64,000 nt of DNA from Escherichia phage vB_Eco_TB37: the sequence record OZ035850. One strand, 5' to 3'. Numbering within the stretch: the first letter of the stretch is position 1; each line of letters opens with the position of its first letter. A model generated the notes under the pieces. It was not told the DNA's origin. It did not search any database and saw nothing but the letters and a program-made list of their open reading frames with translations. This document shows positions 1,483 to 39,835 of this stretch, piece by piece. The position numbers were made by a program, and so were the translations under genes.

Positions 1483-2766
1483 ATGGCTAAAATCAACGAA
1501 CTTCTGCGCGAATCAACCACAACGAATAGCAACTCAATCGGTCGCCCAAATCTCGTTGCTTTGACTCGCGCTACCACTAAATTAATATATTCTGACATTG
1601 TAGCAACGCAAAGAACTAATCAACCTGTTGCTGCTTTTTATGGTATCAAATACCTTAACCCAGACAATGAATTTACATTTAAAACTGGTGCTACTTATGC
1701 TGGCGAAGCTGGATATGTAGACCGAGAACAAATCACAGAATTAACAGAAGAGTCTAAATTAACTCTCAATAAAGGCGATTTATTCAAATATAATAATATC
1801 GTTTATAAAGTATTAGAAGATACACCATTTGCTGATATTGAAGAAAGCGATTTAGAATTAGCTCTTCAGATTGCAATTGTTCTTTTAAAGGTTCGTTTAT
1901 TTTCTGACGCAGCATCAACAAGCAAATTTGAAAGCTCTGATAGTGAAATTGCGGATGCTAGATTCCAGATTAATAAATGGCAAACCGCCGTTAAATCTCG
2001 TAAACTTAAAACTGGCATCACAGTTGAATTAGCACAAGATTTAGAAGCAAATGGATTCGATGCTCCTAATTTCTTGGAAGATTTGCTTGCAACCGAAATG
2101 GCGGATGAAATCAATAAAGATATTCTGCAGTCTTTGATTACAGTGTCAAAACGCTATAAAGTTACAGGAATTACTGATAGTGGATTCATCGATTTGAGTT
2201 ATGCATCTGCACCTGAAGCGGGTCGTTCATTATATCGAATGGTATGTGAAATGGTTTCACATATCCAAAAAGAATCAACTTATACAGCAACATTTTGTGT
2301 AGCTTCAGCTCGTGCTGCTGCGATTCTTGCTGCATCAGGTTGGTTAAAACATAAACCGGAAGATGATAAATATCTTTCACAAAATGCCTACGGGTTCTTA
2401 GCTAATGGTTTACCGCTTTATTGCGATACTAACAGCCCATTAGATTATGTAATCGTTGGTGTAGTAGAAAATATCGGTGAAAAAGAAATTGTTGGATCAA
2501 TTTTCTATGCTCCGTATACAGAAGGTCTCGACTTAGATGACCCTGAACATGTAGGTGCATTTAAAGTTGTTGTTGATCCAGAAAGCTTACAGCCGTCTAT
2601 CGGTTTATTAGTTAGATATGCTTTATCAGCAAATCCTTATACCGTAGCAAAAGATGAAAAAGAAGCAAGAATAATTGACGGTGGAGACATGGATAAAATG
2701 GCTGGTCGTTCAGATTTGTCTGTTTTATTAGGTGTTAAATTACCAAAAATTATTATTGATGAATAA
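1483..2766 (+). CDS. 24: Capsid vertex protein gp24
   Basis: 427 aa, N-terminus MAKINELLRESTTTNS as in T4 gp24; paralogous to gp23; late promoter upstream. Confidence 0.96.
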   Translation: MAKINELLRESTTTNSNSIGRPNLVALTRATTKLIYSDIVATQRTNQPVAAFYGIKYLNPDNEFTFKTGATYAGEAGYVDREQITELTEESKLTLNKGDLFKYNNIVYKVLEDTPFADIEESDLELALQIAIVLLKVRLFSDAASTSKFESSDSEIADARFQINKWQTAVKSRKLKTGITVELAQDLEANGFDAPNFLEDLLATEMADEINKDILQSLITVSKRYKVTGITDSGFIDLSYASAPEAGRSLYRMVCEMVSHIQKESTYTATFCVASARAAAILAASGWLKHKPEDDKYLSQNAYGFLANGLPLYCDTNSPLDYVIVGVVENIGEKEIVGSIFYAPYTEGLDLDDPEHVGAFKVVVDPESLQPSIGLLVRYALSANPYTVAKDEKEARIIDGGDMDKMAGRSDLSVLLGVKLPKIIIDE

Positions 2767-2768
2767 AG

Positions 2769-2797
2769 CAAAGGGACCTTTCGGTCCCTTTTTATTT
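2769..2797. terminator. Bidirectional terminator between gene 24 and rnlB
   Basis: AAGGGACC-TTTC-GGTCCCTT hairpin flanked by A-run and T-run between convergent genes. Confidence 0.75.
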
Positions 2798-3800
2798 AGC
2801 TCACCAACTCAATCCAAGCTGGACGAAGTACATCTTGTACCATTTTAACTAATTCCTTCTTAATCAAAGAAGGATTATCTGCTTGAGTTAGAGTAATACC
2901 TTCACGAGAAGTTTCTTCCAAAATATCTTGAACAGTTAGCCCCATCACCTTTCCAAAATCCTTTGGACCAATTTCGCCAATTTTAGAAATAACGTTATTT
3001 ACCCGGTTCAGTGTAACGTAACAAGCTAAAATTCCCACCAATTTGTTATCAGCTTCTGATAGTTCAACTTTAGCTTTAATAGGCTTATCAGACTTTTTCT
3101 TTTCACTAAATTTGGAATTCTTGCATTTAATCGCTACACGATTGCGATTAGGCAGCCAAGAAGGATAACAAGGTTTCAATACATATCCTTCAGCGGTAAA
3201 TACTTCGCCTTTTGCTTCGGCATTCCAAACGCATTTATTTGCATCAACTAATCCAGCATGGTCTACTGTAAAATTATAATCTTGGACGACAGAATCTAAA
3301 TCATTTGGCAATTTAATAAGTTCTTCAAATTTACCGCGACCTAAAAGTGGAGCCATTTTAAATTTAAACGTATTACAGAATGATTCCATCATATAATCAT
3401 CGACATAAGTCACATCACCACTTTCTGTAGTAACAATAATGTCAAATACATAAAAATCTTTATCGCCATAATCAACATTCTTCTGAATGCCAGGTCCAGC
3501 GAATTCGCCAAAGACTTGATAAGATACAACCGCTGAGGTTTCCATAATATCTTGTACTGCTTTAATGGAATCAGCGTAATTCTTCAAAATAATTTCATAC
3601 CCAAAGAAATCTTCAGCAGGAAGAATCGGTCCAGTACGTTTAGCACAAGTTACTTTATCACGCTCAATAATCAATGAAAAGTTTGTACCATGAATCTTTT
3701 CACGAGCTACCCATTCGCCGCCAGTCAATCCTAAACTGTAAAGTTTTTCAATAAATTTAGAGTTGTAATGATTTTCAAGACTGCTATACTTTTTAAACAT
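2796..3800 (-). CDS. rnlB: RNA ligase 2
   Basis: 334 aa, [17 protein letters not shown]-terminus as T4 Rnl2; nucleotidyltransferase motif I EKIHGTN. Confidence 0.95.
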
Positions 3801-3809
3801 AATTAATCC

Positions 3810-4088
3810 TCAAAATGTAATTTCTAACCAATCACCATCACGCTGATCACTATTGACTTTAAAGCTAAATCCTTCTTTTCTCAGCCAATCACCAATTTCT
3901 TCAGTAATCAATTTATCGCGAGCAGTACAATAATAACTAAAATATGTTTTACCTTGTTCAGCTGCTTTATTAGCAAGTTCCGAAAAATCTTTAATAAAAC
4001 ACTCTAGTTTAAACTGTTTACTTTTAAGTGCTTTTTCGCGTAATTGATTAGCAAAAGATTCATTTTCATAAAGATCATACTGTTCCAT
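3810..4088 (-). CDS. Hypothetical protein (T4 24.2 position)
   Basis: 92-aa ORF in early-gene orientation between rnlB and hoc. Confidence 0.6.
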   Translation of the reverse strand: MEQYDLYENESFANQLREKALKSKQFKLECFIKDFSELANKAAEQGKTYFSYYCTARDKLITEEIGDWLRKEGFSFKVNSDQRDGDWLEITF

Positions 4089-4290
4089 TTTTCACCTTTT
4101 TATTAATATGTCTTTTTCTATAGACAACTTTTTCTCGAGTCTCAAATTTATTTTTAGCAGTCATAGCTCGAGCCCATAATACAGCCACTTCTTTTGCCTG
4201 TAAGTTCAATTCACGAGCAATTTCAATGAATGACTTTCCAGACTCATGAAGAGTAAACACCACAACCTCAGTTCTCATAATCAATCTCAT
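4075..4290 (-). CDS. Hypothetical protein (T4 24.3 position)
   Basis: 71-aa ORF overlapping the preceding ORF by 14 nt. Confidence 0.55.
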   Translation of the reverse strand: MRLIMRTEVVVFTLHESGKSFIEIARELNLQAKEVAVLWARAMTAKNKFETREKVVYRKRHINKKVKNGTV

Positions 4291-4339
4291 GTTATCGAGT
4301 GGGTGCCATTATATACATCATTTTCTGATTGTGTTTTGT

Positions 4340-4376
4340 GTGCTTTCAAAATGAAGAAAGGGGCCGAAGCCCCTAA
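4340..4376 (-). terminator. Terminator downstream of hoc
   Basis: GGGGC-CGAA-GCCCC hairpin followed on the minus strand by a T-rich tract. Confidence 0.55.
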
Positions 4377-4378
4377 GA

Positions 4379-5509
4379 TTATGGATAGGTATAGATGATA
4401 CCAGTTTCTAAAGCAGTTTTATGAATGATGTATCCATTGCGCGATTCTTGAACATCAACTTCTGGGTAGTCTTTCATCATCTTCTGAAGAGTGTAACGAT
4501 GCAAGTAGTACTTACTATCTGGGTCGTCAGTTTTCCAATCTTTACCTTCTTCAGTCATTTTTTGGATTTCATCCATAACCCACCAACCGCACCAGATATA
4601 AGCTGAAGTACGATGTGGAAGAGGATGAACATAAGGTAATTCACCTTCTGGTTCCGGAGCAACTTTATCAGTCACTTGAACTTGGCCTTCTGCTGTAATA
4701 GTTTTGCTATCATAATCAGCGGCGGTAACAGTTGCAGTAACTTCAATGGTTTGACTTCCAATAGATGATGTATCAACGGTGTATACATTAGTTGACCCTT
4801 CTACAGGAGAAGAATCTTTCTTCCATGAATATTCGATTTGTGCTTCTTCTGGAGCATCCGTAACATTAGCCGTAAATGTAGCCGAAGCATCTTGCTGGAC
4901 GTTAATAGAAGGAGGAGTCAATGTAACCTGTGGATTCATTGTTTTCTTATTAACTGTCAATGACACTTCATTAGAAGTAACTTCCTTTGCATCATAATCT
5001 GTCGCTGTTACTTGGGCTACGCATTTAATTCTTTTTACTCCACTTGTAGTTGGAGTATAGCTAAATGTAGCGGAAGTTGCTTCACTAACAGGAGAATCAT
5101 CTACATACCACTGATACGTAGCAGATACACTTGGTGGCTGTGAATCTAAAGCAGCGGTAAATTCAACAGCTGTTCCGATTACTCCAGCATCAGGGCTACC
5201 AGGAGTTACTGCCAAGGTAGTTGTTTGTGTCTTATTTTGAACTGTGATAGTTGTACTAATTTCAGCTGTTTCGGGACTACTATCGGCAACTTGATTGGTT
5301 GCAACTACTTTAATAGTTTTTTGACCGGCAGGTCCTTTTAGTACATAACTAAAAGTTGCTGACGTTTCTTCCTGTGGTGCATCATCAACAGTCCAAGCAT
5401 ATGTAATAGGTCCATCTCCAGTTTGACCACTGGGTGTAGCAGTAAACTGCTGAGTCTGATCTATAACTCCAGTAGGTGTTTTAGGAGTTATATCAACTGT
5501 AAAAGCCAT
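4379..5509 (-). CDS. hoc: Head outer capsid protein Hoc
   Basis: 376 aa; Ig-like repeats and C-terminus …YIIHKTALETGIIYTYP as in T4 Hoc. Confidence 0.95.
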   Translation of the reverse strand: MAFTVDITPKTPTGVIDQTQQFTATPSGQTGDGPITYAWTVDDAPQEETSATFSYVLKGPAGQKTIKVVATNQVADSSPETAEISTTITVQNKTQTTTLAVTPGSPDAGVIGTAVEFTAALDSQPPSVSATYQWYVDDSPVSEATSATFSYTPTTSGVKRIKCVAQVTATDYDAKEVTSNEVSLTVNKKTMNPQVTLTPPSINVQQDASATFTANVTDAPEEAQIEYSWKKDSSPVEGSTNVYTVDTSSIGSQTIEVTATVTAADYDSKTITAEGQVQVTDKVAPEPEGELPYVHPLPHRTSAYIWCGWWVMDEIQKMTEEGKDWKTDDPDSKYYLHRYTLQKMMKDYPEVDVQESRNGYIIHKTALETGIIYTYP

Positions 5510-34861: not shown

Positions 34862-37126
34862 TCATAATTTACAGGATGAACAATCTTCAGCTTTTGGAGT
34901 TTCTATTTCATAATCATCAGTACCAGAACCATCGCGGGTATTATGATAATAGAAATTTTTTCCGCCAAAATACCAAAAATACAAAAGGTCATCAATCATT
35001 ATTGACATTGGAACCTTGCCTTTAGGGAAGATTTGGGGGTCATAGTATGTATTCGCCGAAGCTGATTGACAAACCCATTTCAGCATAATAGCTACCTGCG
35101 TAAGATAAGGTTTATTACCTTTCTTAGCTAATTTCCATGTATAGTCGTAAAGGTCTATGTTATGCTCAATATTGGGCACGACTTGATTAAAGGAGCCCTC
35201 TTTTGATTCTTTAACAGAGACTGGTCCACGTGGAGGCTCGATACCGTTTGTACTGTTAGAAACTTGGGAAGATGACTCACATGGCATAAGTGCTGATAAT
35301 GTGCTATTACGGATGCCAAAGAGCTTAAGGTCTTCCCGCAGCGACGACCAGTCACAAACGTATTTTGGAGCTGCGATTTGGTCAATCTTTTTATTGTACC
35401 AGTCGATAGGTAATTCGCCTCGAGACCAACGAGTGTCTGAATAATATTCGCAAGGTCCTTTTTCTTTGGCGAGCTTAATGGATGCTTTAATGAGTCCATA
35501 CTGTAATCTCTCAAATAGTTCATGTGTTAAATCGTTAGCATCTTCATAAGAAGCAAAGTTACTTGCCAGCCAAGCTGCATAGTTAGTAACACCTACACCA
35601 AGGTTTCGACGCTTTTTAGCTTTTTCTGCTTCAGGAACTGGATATCCTTGGTAATCCAAAAGATTATCAAGAGCACGAACTTGAACTTCTGCCAATTCAT
35701 TAATTTTATCTTGGTCTTGCCAATCAAAGTTATCCAGCACAAATGCAGATAATGTACACAATCCAATTTCAGCATCAGGACTATTCACATCATTTGTTGG
35801 AATAGCAATTTCACAGCACAAGTTGCTCTGACGAATAGGTGCCTTTTCACGAATAAATGGCGTATAGTTATTCGTATTATCAATGAACTGCACATAAATC
35901 CTTGCTGTTCCTGAGCGTTCAGTCATGAGCAATTCAAATAGTTCACGGGCTTTAATGCGCTTTTTACGAATATTAGGGTCTTTTTCTGCTGCTTCGTATA
36001 ATTCACGGAAACGGTCTTGGTCTTTAAAATAAGAATAATAAAGCTCGCCACCCATTTCATGCGGACTGAACAAAGTAATGTAATCATTCTTTCCAAAACG
36101 TTCCATCATTAGATCATTCAGTTGAACACCATAATCCATATGACGGATACGGTTTTCTTCTACACCTTTGTTATTTTTCAAAACGAGAAGATTTTCAACT
36201 TCCAAATGCCAAATAGGATAATAAGCAGTAGCAGCGCCGCCACGAATTCCACCCTGTGAGCATGATTTAACAGCAGTCTGAAAATGTTTCCAAAAAGGAA
36301 TAACACCAGTATGGCGTACTTCACCCATGCCAATCTTAGAACCTTCGGCACGAATCATACCAACGTTAATACCAATTCCAGCGCGTTTGGAGATATATTC
36401 AACAATTGAAGCAGAAGCCTTATTGATAGACTTTAATGAATCACCTGCCTCAATAACAACGCATGAACTAAACTGCCGAGTTGGAGTACGGCAACCAGCC
36501 ATAATAGGAGTTGGTAATGAAATCTGTCGAGTAGATACTGCTTCATAAAAACGAATAACGTGTTTTAATCTATCAACAGGTTCATCTTGATGCAATGCCA
36601 TTCCAATAGTCATAAATGCAAACTGTGGAGTTTCATAAATTTGACCAGTGGTTTTATCTTTAACTAGATATTTTTCTTTTAATTGCATCGCCCCGGAATA
36701 AGTAAATTCCATATCCCGCTCATGCTTAATTTTTGATTCTAAAAATGTAATTTCTTCGGCAGAATATTTTGACAACAGTTCAGGGTCATATTTACCTTCA
36801 TTTACACAGTAAGAAATATGGTCAATAAATGAACGTGGTTCATACTGCCCGTAAACATGCTTACGAAGAGCGAACATTAAACAGCGTGCAGCTACATATT
36901 GGTAATCAGGCTCTTCAACTGAAATAGAATTCGCAGCAGCCTTAATTACAATGGTTTGAATGTCATCAGTGGTCATTCCATCACGGAGATATGATTTAAT
37001 ATTTTCATATAATTCATAAGGATCTACAGATGTTCCTTCAGCTGCCCAAGATAAAACTTTAATAATTTTTTGTGGGTCAAAGCTCTGAGAAACACCACTA
37101 CTTTTGATAACATTAATTAATTGCAT
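34862..37126 (-). CDS. nrdA: Ribonucleotide reductase large subunit
   Basis: 754 aa; active-site SNLCCEI; N-terminus [20 protein letters not shown]. Confidence 0.97.
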   Translation of the reverse strand: MQLINVIKSSGVSQSFDPQKIIKVLSWAAEGTSVDPYELYENIKSYLRDGMTTDDIQTIVIKAAANSISVEEPDYQYVAARCLMFALRKHVYGQYEPRSFIDHISYCVNEGKYDPELLSKYSAEEITFLESKIKHERDMEFTYSGAMQLKEKYLVKDKTTGQIYETPQFAFMTIGMALHQDEPVDRLKHVIRFYEAVSTRQISLPTPIMAGCRTPTRQFSSCVVIEAGDSLKSINKASASIVEYISKRAGIGINVGMIRAEGSKIGMGEVRHTGVIPFWKHFQTAVKSCSQGGIRGGAATAYYPIWHLEVENLLVLKNNKGVEENRIRHMDYGVQLNDLMMERFGKNDYITLFSPHEMGGELYYSYFKDQDRFRELYEAAEKDPNIRKKRIKARELFELLMTERSGTARIYVQFIDNTNNYTPFIREKAPIRQSNLCCEIAIPTNDVNSPDAEIGLCTLSAFVLDNFDWQDQDKINELAEVQVRALDNLLDYQGYPVPEAEKAKKRRNLGVGVTNYAAWLASNFASYEDANDLTHELFERLQYGLIKASIKLAKEKGPCEYYSDTRWSRGELPIDWYNKKIDQIAAPKYVCDWSSLREDLKLFGIRNSTLSALMPCESSSQVSNSTNGIEPPRGPVSVKESKEGSFNQVVPNIEHNIDLYDYTWKLAKKGNKPYLTQVAIMLKWVCQSASANTYYDPQIFPKGKVPMSIMIDDLLYFWYFGGKNFYYHNTRDGSGTDDYEIETPKAEDCSSCKL

Positions 37127-37241
37127 AAGTCCTCAACTTGAAAATCGTCTTTAAACAATCGGTCTGAGAAACACCACTACTTTTGATAACATTAATTAAT
37201 TGCATAAGTCCTCAACTTGAAAATCGTCTTTAAACAATCGG
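37084..37241. repeat. Perfect 79-bp tandem direct duplication across the nrdA start
   Basis: 37084-37162 and 37163-37241 are identical base for base (boundaries ambiguous by 1 bp). Confidence 0.95.
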
Positions 37242-37522: not shown

Positions 37523-37739
37523 ATTGTTTTTCCGTTAATACAGTAATATCATAGTAACAATCGGAAGAAGTTTTAACTGTGGAAATTTTATTATCAAAAT
37601 ACTCACGAGTCATTTTATGAGTATAGTATTTTTTACCATAAATGGTAATAGGCTGTTCTGGTCCTGGAACTTCTAACTCGCTTGGGTTAGGAAGTGTAAA
37701 AAGAACAACGCCAGAAGTATCTTTAAATCGTAAAATCAT
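37476..37739 (-). CDS. Hypothetical protein (nrdA.2 position)
   Basis: 87-aa ORF; 3' end overlaps the next ORF by 47 nt. Confidence 0.5.
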
Positions 37740-38596
37740 ATTGCCATTTTCCCTTTAATTGCTGGATGCGATTCATAATTTTCAAGGATAAAATCTTTCG
37801 GTTTCATGTATTCAGTTAACCAGTAAAGCTGTGTTTCGGTGTCACAATTTCCAAACTCTATAGGCCAATCAATTTTAAGTTCACACAGTTCTTTAGGCTC
37901 ACGACGTAAAATTTCTTTACATTGCGCAGTATGATTCATATAGATGTGAGTATTACCACCAGAAAATATCAAATCTCCTGGGATAAGATTACACATCTTA
38001 GCCACAATATGCGTCAAGGCAGCGTACGAGGCAATGTTGAATGGCAAGCCCAAGAAAACATCTACACTTCTTTGGTACCATTGTAAATCAAGATAACCAT
38101 TACGCACATTAAACTGATAGAACATATGACAGGGCGGTAATGCCATTTGATTGATTTCAGCTGGATTCCATGCTGAAACGATTTGACGTCGATCAGTTGG
38201 TAATTTTTTAATACGATCAATAGTTTCAACTAATTGATCCACACCACCGAAATCACGCCATTGTTTACCGTATATAGGACCAAGTTCACCACTATGATAT
38301 CCTAGGTCTTTAGCCTGGTTTTCATAGTTATCGTCCCAAATAGTTTTACCTTGAATAAGACTGCCATGAGTGCGAAGACGTAAATCATTAACATTGGTAG
38401 AACCGGAAATAAACCATAGAAGCTCAGCAATGCATGCATTCCAGGCGAGCTTTTTAGTTGTTATTGCAGGAAAACCTTTTGTTAAATCCCAACGCAATTT
38501 AGTACCGAACAAAGCAATTGTTCCTGTGCCTGTTCGGTCATCGGTTTCATAGCCATTTTCAAAAATGTCTTTAATTAAATCTTGGTATTGTTTCAT
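37736..38596 (-). CDS. td: Thymidylate synthase, uninterrupted
   Basis: Single continuous 286-aa ORF; active-site PPCHMFYQF; [25 protein letters not shown]. Confidence 0.97.
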
Positions 38597-38640
38597 TTAG
38601 TACCTTATATAAATTATAATACATTTTATGAAGCTAATAA

Positions 38641-38988
38641 TTAATACGGTTTAGCATCAAATTTTCTCTCAATTTCAGGCGTGAAATATAATTCTTTACC
38701 GCGTTTGGAAAAGCGACCAATAATATGATAATTATTCTCATCAAACGTAATATTACCAATATCCATAGCTTTCAACCAAATATCGATATTTCTATCCAGC
38801 TTTATGTCAAAATTCCAATATGGAGAACTATTACCGAAAATACTGCAAGCGGATTCAGTGAAACAACTGCTATAAATCTTGTCTTTAGGAACTACTAATT
38901 GATAGACACCTTTAATAAACTGAGGACCTTGCCATTTTGGCTGTTTCGTGTCTTTTTCTAATAGAATAGGGTAATAATTAAAATTCAT
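38641..38988 (-). CDS. Hypothetical protein between frd and td
   Basis: 115 aa from ATG at 38988 (119 aa from GTG at 39000); no recognisable motif. Confidence 0.5.
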   Translation of the reverse strand: MNFNYYPILLEKDTKQPKWQGPQFIKGVYQLVVPKDKIYSSCFTESACSIFGNSSPYWNFDIKLDRNIDIWLKAMDIGNITFDENNYHIIGRFSKRGKELYFTPEIERKFDAKPY

Positions 38989-39008
38989 ATTTTCCGCCAC
39001 GCGTTATT

Positions 39009-39835
<827 letters not shown>

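Follow-up and report, generated by a model that had tools for sequence, protein, structure and literature searches.

Layout of the frd–td interval

The window analysed in this study is a 64,000-nucleotide stretch of DNA from Escherichia phage vB_Eco_TB37 (OZ035850). It is a mosaic Tequatrovirus segment, with Shigella phage JK38 as its best 20-kb match (97.7%). On its minus strand, the genes for dihydrofolate reductase (frd) and thymidylate synthase (td) are separated by 412 bp (38597-39008), and nrdA.2, nrdA.1, and nrdA follow downstream of td on the same strand. The gap contains a sole ORF, which we denoted as ORF-X, in the same orientation as its two neighbours. A sequence-only reading of this stretch had described a gap of about 410 bp with a same-strand ORF of 115-119 aa, and our measurements agree on both points: the frame covers 38641-38988 from an ATG (115 aa) or 38641-39000 from a GTG (119 aa). 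The genes and features of the interval, listed in the direction of transcription, are as follows.

39009-39590, minus strand: frd (dihydrofolate reductase), 193 aa, stop codon TGA at 39011-39009, from the ORF list
39007-39015, minus strand: left copy of the 9-bp direct repeat TAAATGAAA, holding the frd stop, from direct reading and a repeat search
39012-39004, minus strand: vestigial mini-ORF ATG-AAA-TAA, within and across the left repeat copy, from direct reading
38641-38988, minus strand: ORF-X, 115 aa, 13.7 kDa, pI 8.5, PHROG 1928, predicted small beta-barrel with one helix
38597-38640, minus strand: spacer between ORF-X and td, 44 nt, with the td Shine-Dalgarno sequence AAGG at 38606-38603 and a candidate MotA-type promoter at 38634-38611
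38591-38599, minus strand: right copy of the 9-bp direct repeat, holding the td start codon at 38596-38594
37736-38596, minus strand: td (thymidylate synthase), 286 aa, intron-less, a divergent allele

The ATG at 38988 is the likely start of ORF-X, since the homologues begin with MNFNYY, a GGA lies 5 nt ahead of it (38995-38993), and other annotators chose a 348-nt CDS, as in the T6, T2, and Ge15 records. The in-frame GTG at 39000, which would give the 119-aa version, has no ribosome-binding site. The junction between frd and ORF-X consists of a 21-nt spacer after the mini-ORF and not of an ATGA overlap, which implies that some rearrangement occurred there too. In phage F2 (NC_054913, 1470-1510), and also in JQD51, an extra A after the usual frd end extends frd by 12 codons to 205 aa. 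This read-through overlaps the start of ORF-X by 11 nt, and the window-type spacer becomes coding.

On the other side of ORF-X, td has its own ribosome-binding site, the AAGG inside the 44-nt spacer. The same spacer contains, on the minus strand, a pattern resembling a MotA-dependent middle promoter (GCTTCA-N10/12-TATAAT/TAATTT). Patterns of this type occur 19 times in the window, about twice the 8.9 expected from shuffles, and the MotA-box-like site is treated here as a candidate promoter only. The F2-type spacer between ORF-X and td is ~31 nt shorter and does not contain the candidate MotA promoter. A sigma-70 scan of the interval found no promoter and no terminator, and the interval showed no Rfam family and no stable RNA fold (z = 0.03).

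The td allele of the window shares only 83% nucleotide identity with td of T4 and T6 in its exon-1 part, and 72-88% in its exon-2 part. Its neighbours are nearly identical to those of T4 (frd 97%, nrdA.2 98%), and the change in identity coincides exactly with the two ends of td. The window and T4 also differ near the site of I-TevI intron insertion, with CTTGGGCTTGCCATTCAAC in the window versus CTTGGGT|CTACCGTTTAAT in T4. Further downstream, 79 bp are perfectly duplicated in tandem (37084-37162 and 37163-37241) across the 3' end of nrdA.1 and the start of nrdA. As a result, the first 14 NrdA codons recur within a newly formed 30-codon ORF on the minus strand (37113-37205). In the best 12 of 506 matching phage records, a 251-nt query of the duplication mapped onto only 172 bp, which corresponds to a single copy, suggesting that the duplication is either very recent or an assembly artefact.

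The ORF-X protein and its family

ORF-X matches the PHROG 1928 profile with an E-value of 1.1e-35, residues 8-115 of the 119-aa query aligning with positions 2-125 of 126 in the profile. Sequence comparison thus identifies it as an ordinary member of PHROG 1928, an uncharacterised family of T4-like phages whose members include RB32ORF229c, Shfl2p237, KMB99_gp163 of T6, and CDS0247 of T2. Hypothetical proteins annotated at the same locus in T2, T6, RB32, RB51, AR1, wV7, and hundreds more phages share 97-100% identity with it. The family splits into a short subfamily X and a long subfamily Y, the latter with an insertion of ~20 residues, and the window contains X only. Among 1.84 billion representative proteins, the family profile retrieved 43 clusters, which measured 95-139 aa barring three Ig-like false positives and two fragments; the three, long repetitive Ig-like proteins (P0041, P0050, and P0053), were judged spurious. 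Residues W19, G91, K95, and G97 are invariant in the family, and G27, Y29, F93, and F102 are nearly so. In a 195-aa NCBI protein (P0015), an unrelated N-terminal part of ~155 residues is fused to the C-terminal ~40 residues of an X-family member (…GNVMVKDDVVSIIGRFEKRGDQLFFTPLQEKFNA), which is probably a truncation or fusion at the frd–td locus of a Klebsiella-type phage.

The selection on ORF-X was estimated from seven Tequatrovirus alleles (those of the window, T6, T2, AndreasVesalius, Ge15, F2, and JQD51). The dN/dS ratios were 0.01-0.06, with dS of up to 0.7-0.97 and dN of at most 0.04; relative to the F2 lineage, ORF-X shows 30-35 synonymous and 10-11 non-synonymous differences (dS ~0.8). 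These values point to strong purifying selection and, together with the conservation of homologues across genera, indicate that ORF-X is a genuine, conserved accessory gene of the T4-like phages, the subfamily Tevenvirinae, and not a chance ORF. A frame that is open by chance, or a pseudogene decaying within a non-coding spacer, would fit with the lack of a known domain and with T4, which shows that ORF-X is dispensable. However, such a sequence is at odds with the low dN/dS, with a frame that is intact in hundreds of genomes, with residue conservation that persists down to 17-30% identity, and with a confident AlphaFold2 fold (pTM 0.74). The selection analysis has already effectively refuted it.

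The sequence-only reading had seen no recognisable motif in the protein, and database searches bear this out: ORF-X had no matches in Pfam, NCBIfam, or PADLOC at E ≤ 10, and PHROG 1928 was its only family. A search of 48 family members against Pfam likewise gave no match at E ≤ 0.1, and no significant sequence or profile match to ORF-X was found in the PDB (best profile E = 0.12). The AlphaFold2 model is compact and confident (pLDDT 79, pTM 0.74), with the order beta1-beta2-beta3-helix-beta4-beta5, and it predicts a small beta-barrel with a weak resemblance to OB folds. Its significant structural matches were only uncharacterised proteins of other T4-like phages. A kinship with cold-shock or S1 proteins, prompted by the motif KW...KG(I/V)Y, was rejected, as hhalign gave a probability of 0.2%. 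The protein is rich in aromatic residues (17%), and the family is mostly basic (median pI ~8.8). A profile search of all six-frame ORFs revealed no paralogue of ORF-X elsewhere in the window (next-best E 0.29), and a literature search on the locus, the PHROG number, and the locus tags found nothing specific.

It should be noted that ORF-X is annotated inconsistently in public records. It is labelled 'putative homing endonuclease' in three BASEL-collection records (MZ501050, MZ501066, MZ501046), 'putative glucose-1-phosphate adenylyltransferase' in PQ571308, MN580668, and OR125554, and dihydrofolate reductase in JQD51 (PV204681), where the product names are shifted by one gene. The homing endonuclease and glucose-1-phosphate adenylyltransferase labels are unsupported.

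Distribution of ORF-X and history of the frd–td junction

An 801-bp segment comprising the end of frd, ORF-X, and the start of td was matched at a coverage of at least 80% in 355 phage records, with identities of up to 98.4%. By tblastn, ORF-X was found in 588 phage records, 362 of them at an amino acid identity of at least 90% and 226 below 60%. The closer matches, as sampled, include T2, RB32, RB51, AR1, wV7, phiD1, and PST, and T6 is also a carrier; the order frd–ORF-X–td was found in T6, T2, F2, and Ge15 as well. The more distant matches belong to phages of Klebsiella, Salmonella, Citrobacter, Enterobacter, Serratia, Erwinia, and Edwardsiella. A homologue lies right after frd and ahead of td in all distant examples inspected, namely PEi20 (Kanagawavirus), KP1 (Jiaodavirus), STML-198 (Gelderlandvirus), CBH8 (Winklervirus), and the metagenomic T4-like contigs L013, L014, and L015. 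Stop and start codons usually overlap at the distant loci inspected, and several of these have a second ORF ahead of td that likewise belongs to PHROG 1928 (the paralogue Y, with the ~20-residue insertion). Between the window and other genera, amino acid identities were 45-52% for Frd, 75-80% for Td, and 29-45% for X, values that fit vertical descent of a faster-evolving small gene.

Within the genus of T4, the junction exists as three alleles. The X-type allele, with ORF-X between frd and td, was found in ~362 records, T2 and T6 included. The Z-type allele contains a 68-aa ORF unrelated to X (PHROG 9550) and was found in ~135 records at an identity of at least 90%, among them Escherichia phage EC121 (NC_054909, 3027-3233), JS98, pSs-1, fPS-90, and PYPS2T. 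The Z ORF overlaps both of its neighbours, its ATG sharing bases with the frd stop (ATGA) and its stop codon with the td start (TAATG). Homologues of Z with ~43% identity were also seen in Phapecoctavirus-type myoviruses such as phAPEC8. The direct frd/td fusion of T4, counted with a 36-nt probe that only such a fusion can match, was found in 32 records, 17 of which are T4, T4T, RB55, or RB59, while the other 15 represent ~10 phages. The three counts add up to 529, near the total of 536 records with any match to the flanks; these phage records are non-independent samples with many near-identical isolates, and their percentages describe the database and not nature.

A metagenomic contig offers a plausible picture of the ancestral interval. 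In L015 (Logan SRR23814683_3322, 2405-4739), frd is followed by X (115 aa), Y (113 aa, the PHROG 1928 paralogue), Z (69 aa, PHROG 9550), and td, and the frd/X, Y/Z, and Z/td junctions were read as ATGA overlaps. The simplest history would be an ancestral series of small, translationally coupled ORFs (frd, X, its paralogue Y, a 68-69-aa Z, and td) that lineages trimmed differently: the window, T2, and T6 would have retained X, EC121-like phages Z, and T4 and a few relatives none.

In T4 itself, the frd stop does overlap the td start, as the sequence-only reading had stated: frd occupies 145109-145690 of NC_000866 and td starts at 145112, giving a 4-bp ATGA. However, the tight coupling that the reading had taken as normal for this gene pair is rare, the ATGA overlap being found in 32 of ~530 related records. 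The window shares with T4 the frd 3' end TATATAAATGA and the td 5' end ATGAAACAATACC. The two ends are fused in T4 (145109-145112) via a shared 9-mer, whereas in the window 416 bp with ORF-X lie between them and td has its own AAGG. This 9-mer is the direct repeat TAAATGAAA, whose copies at the frd stop (39015-39007) and the td start (38599-38591) are spaced 416 bp apart; widened to 12 nt in the repeat search, the copies are identical at 11 of 12 positions. On the coding strand, the window reads ...CAGTATATAAATGAAATAACGCGTGGCGGAAAATATGAATTTT, then ORF-X, then ...TTATATAAGGTACTAAATGAAACAATACC..., and T4 reads ...CAGTATATAAATGAAACAATACC..., which equals the window sequence minus the 416 bp between the repeats. 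The homology of the window to T4, with frd 96.9% identical at the nucleotide level, stops at the left repeat copy. The T4 junction is thus the exact product of a deletion between the 9-bp repeats.

These data suggest that ORF-X is very probably a long-standing PHROG 1928 occupant of the frd–td interval and that the T4 state is a derived deletion. As most relatives of T4 carry ORF-X at frd–td, T4 would have lost the gene and the phage of the window would not have gained it. The overlap in T4 would have arisen through a 416-bp deletion between the repeats at the frd stop and the td start, in a T6-like ancestor bearing the td intron. T6 has the same filled junction together with an intron-bearing td allele, and its flanks are the closest to those of T4: frd is 96.6% and td exon 1 96.9% identical, whereas EC121 reaches 94.3% and 92.5%. 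The sequence-only reading had proposed an accessory gene insertion. What it got right is that a genuine, variable gene lies here on the same strand and that no ORF occupies this position in T4; the direction, however, appears to be the reverse, given the presence of X in ~362 records and other genera and the exact deletion junction, and the comparison had leaned on a single reference genome.

For an insertion, the T4-like frd-ATGA-td arrangement would be ancestral, and a 416-bp ORF-X cassette would have entered it, duplicating the 9-bp target TAAATGAAA. A direct repeat does bracket the segment and T4 resembles a clean empty site; a target-site duplication would look alike, but the pattern is equally expected for a microhomology-mediated deletion. 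In addition, close relatives differ in whether the locus has an X, a Z, or an empty allele, and the GC content of ORF-X (31.6%) is slightly below the 37-38% of the adjacent genes. However, few records show the empty site, nearly all of them from T4 and ~10 other phages, and it is nested among X-bearing relatives, T6, the nearest flank relative of T4, carrying X. In at least four other genera, as well as in metagenomic contigs, this slot is filled by X homologues whose divergence is comparable with that of Frd, and the 416-bp segment contains no transposase, integrase, nuclease, or terminal inverted repeats. Furthermore, the divergent F2 lineage, with a dS of ~0.8 in X, already has both repeat copies in the form of an 8-nt core, AAATGAAA, which indicates that the repeats are older than the split between F2 and the window and are not a fresh target-site duplication. 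Insertion is therefore disfavoured, and we consider it very unlikely.

A different kind of mobility would apply if ORF-X were a small free-standing homing endonuclease whose presence or absence reflects homing. The label in the three BASEL-collection records says so, and the variable presence between two conserved genes is also a property of the seg and mob genes of T4 (PMC2988022), with which ORF-X shares a variably filled slot among close relatives. However, ORF-X has no nuclease motif or fold, neither as a domain in Pfam, NCBIfam, or PADLOC nor among its fold matches. The protein is also too small, and homing endonuclease genes do not typically show the ancient conservation across genera that ORF-X does. 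Moreover, what varies at frd–td is gene loss and not gene spread. The probability that ORF-X is a homing endonuclease is accordingly minimal. Homing could still have acted through the neighbouring intron. I-TevI of the mobile td intron drives co-conversion biased towards exon I (PMC2988022), and the frd–td junction lies 549 bp upstream of the td intron site, so the empty junction could hitch-hike with the intron. Of the 32 records with the T4-type junction, 30 have the td intron. A strict mutual exclusion between ORF-X and the intron, implying loss by I-TevI co-conversion, was rejected; 79 records, T6 included, have both, and the link to the intron is therefore not obligatory.

Possible functions and implications

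The ORF-X product is probably a basic, aromatic-rich 13.7-kDa beta-barrel that binds a partner rather than catalysing a reaction, and we infer that ORF-X shares its transcripts with frd and td and is expressed early or in the middle period. Our best guess for its class, which is tentative, is a non-essential factor for host interaction or counter-defence, or for nucleic-acid binding.

The next most likely role, though an unlikely one, is that of a helper of the phage dTMP/dNTP-synthesis machinery, in which ORF-X would act as an auxiliary subunit or regulator of the thymidylate/dNTP-synthesis module. Binding to Td, Frd, or their mRNA would then account for its retention, translationally coupled, between frd and td. 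X keeps its position between these genes in all genera examined, and stop and start codons often overlap there; such a conserved place between two genes of the dTMP pathway might just as well reflect a metabolic role. The strong purifying selection and the basic, aromatic-rich protein with its predicted, weakly OB-like topology also speak for it. However, T4 and the Z-type phages do without ORF-X while keeping a near-identical Frd and a functional Td, no sequence or structural link of ORF-X to any nucleotide-metabolism protein was found, and the early regions of T4-like phages keep the gene order of many unrelated small ORFs. It is rather improbable that PHROG 1928 represents a new functional class, an orphan beta-barrel coupled to frd–td that serves as a regulator or chaperone of the thymidylate module or as a counter-defence against host systems that sense or starve nucleotides. 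If it did, the loss of the gene in the laboratory reference T4 would explain why PHROG 1928 was never studied, and ORF-X might underlie some of the host-range differences between T2/T6 and T4.

ORF-X was already known as an annotated hypothetical gene; it is an ordinary accessory gene, and the current view of phage biology is unchanged. Its product is one of many conserved, strongly constrained, uncharacterised early proteins of T-even phages, and it can be studied only in T2, T6, or RB phages and not in T4. The locus also illustrates reference bias: the frd/td ATGA overlap of T4, often cited as normal, is rare and appears to be a derived deletion state, while, in database proportions, approximately two thirds of the sequenced relatives carry ORF-X and a quarter carry a different small ORF. 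Our study provides what appears to be a clean natural example of the loss of a whole ORF by recombination between short similar sequences at the boundaries of coupled genes, with the coupling restored afterwards.
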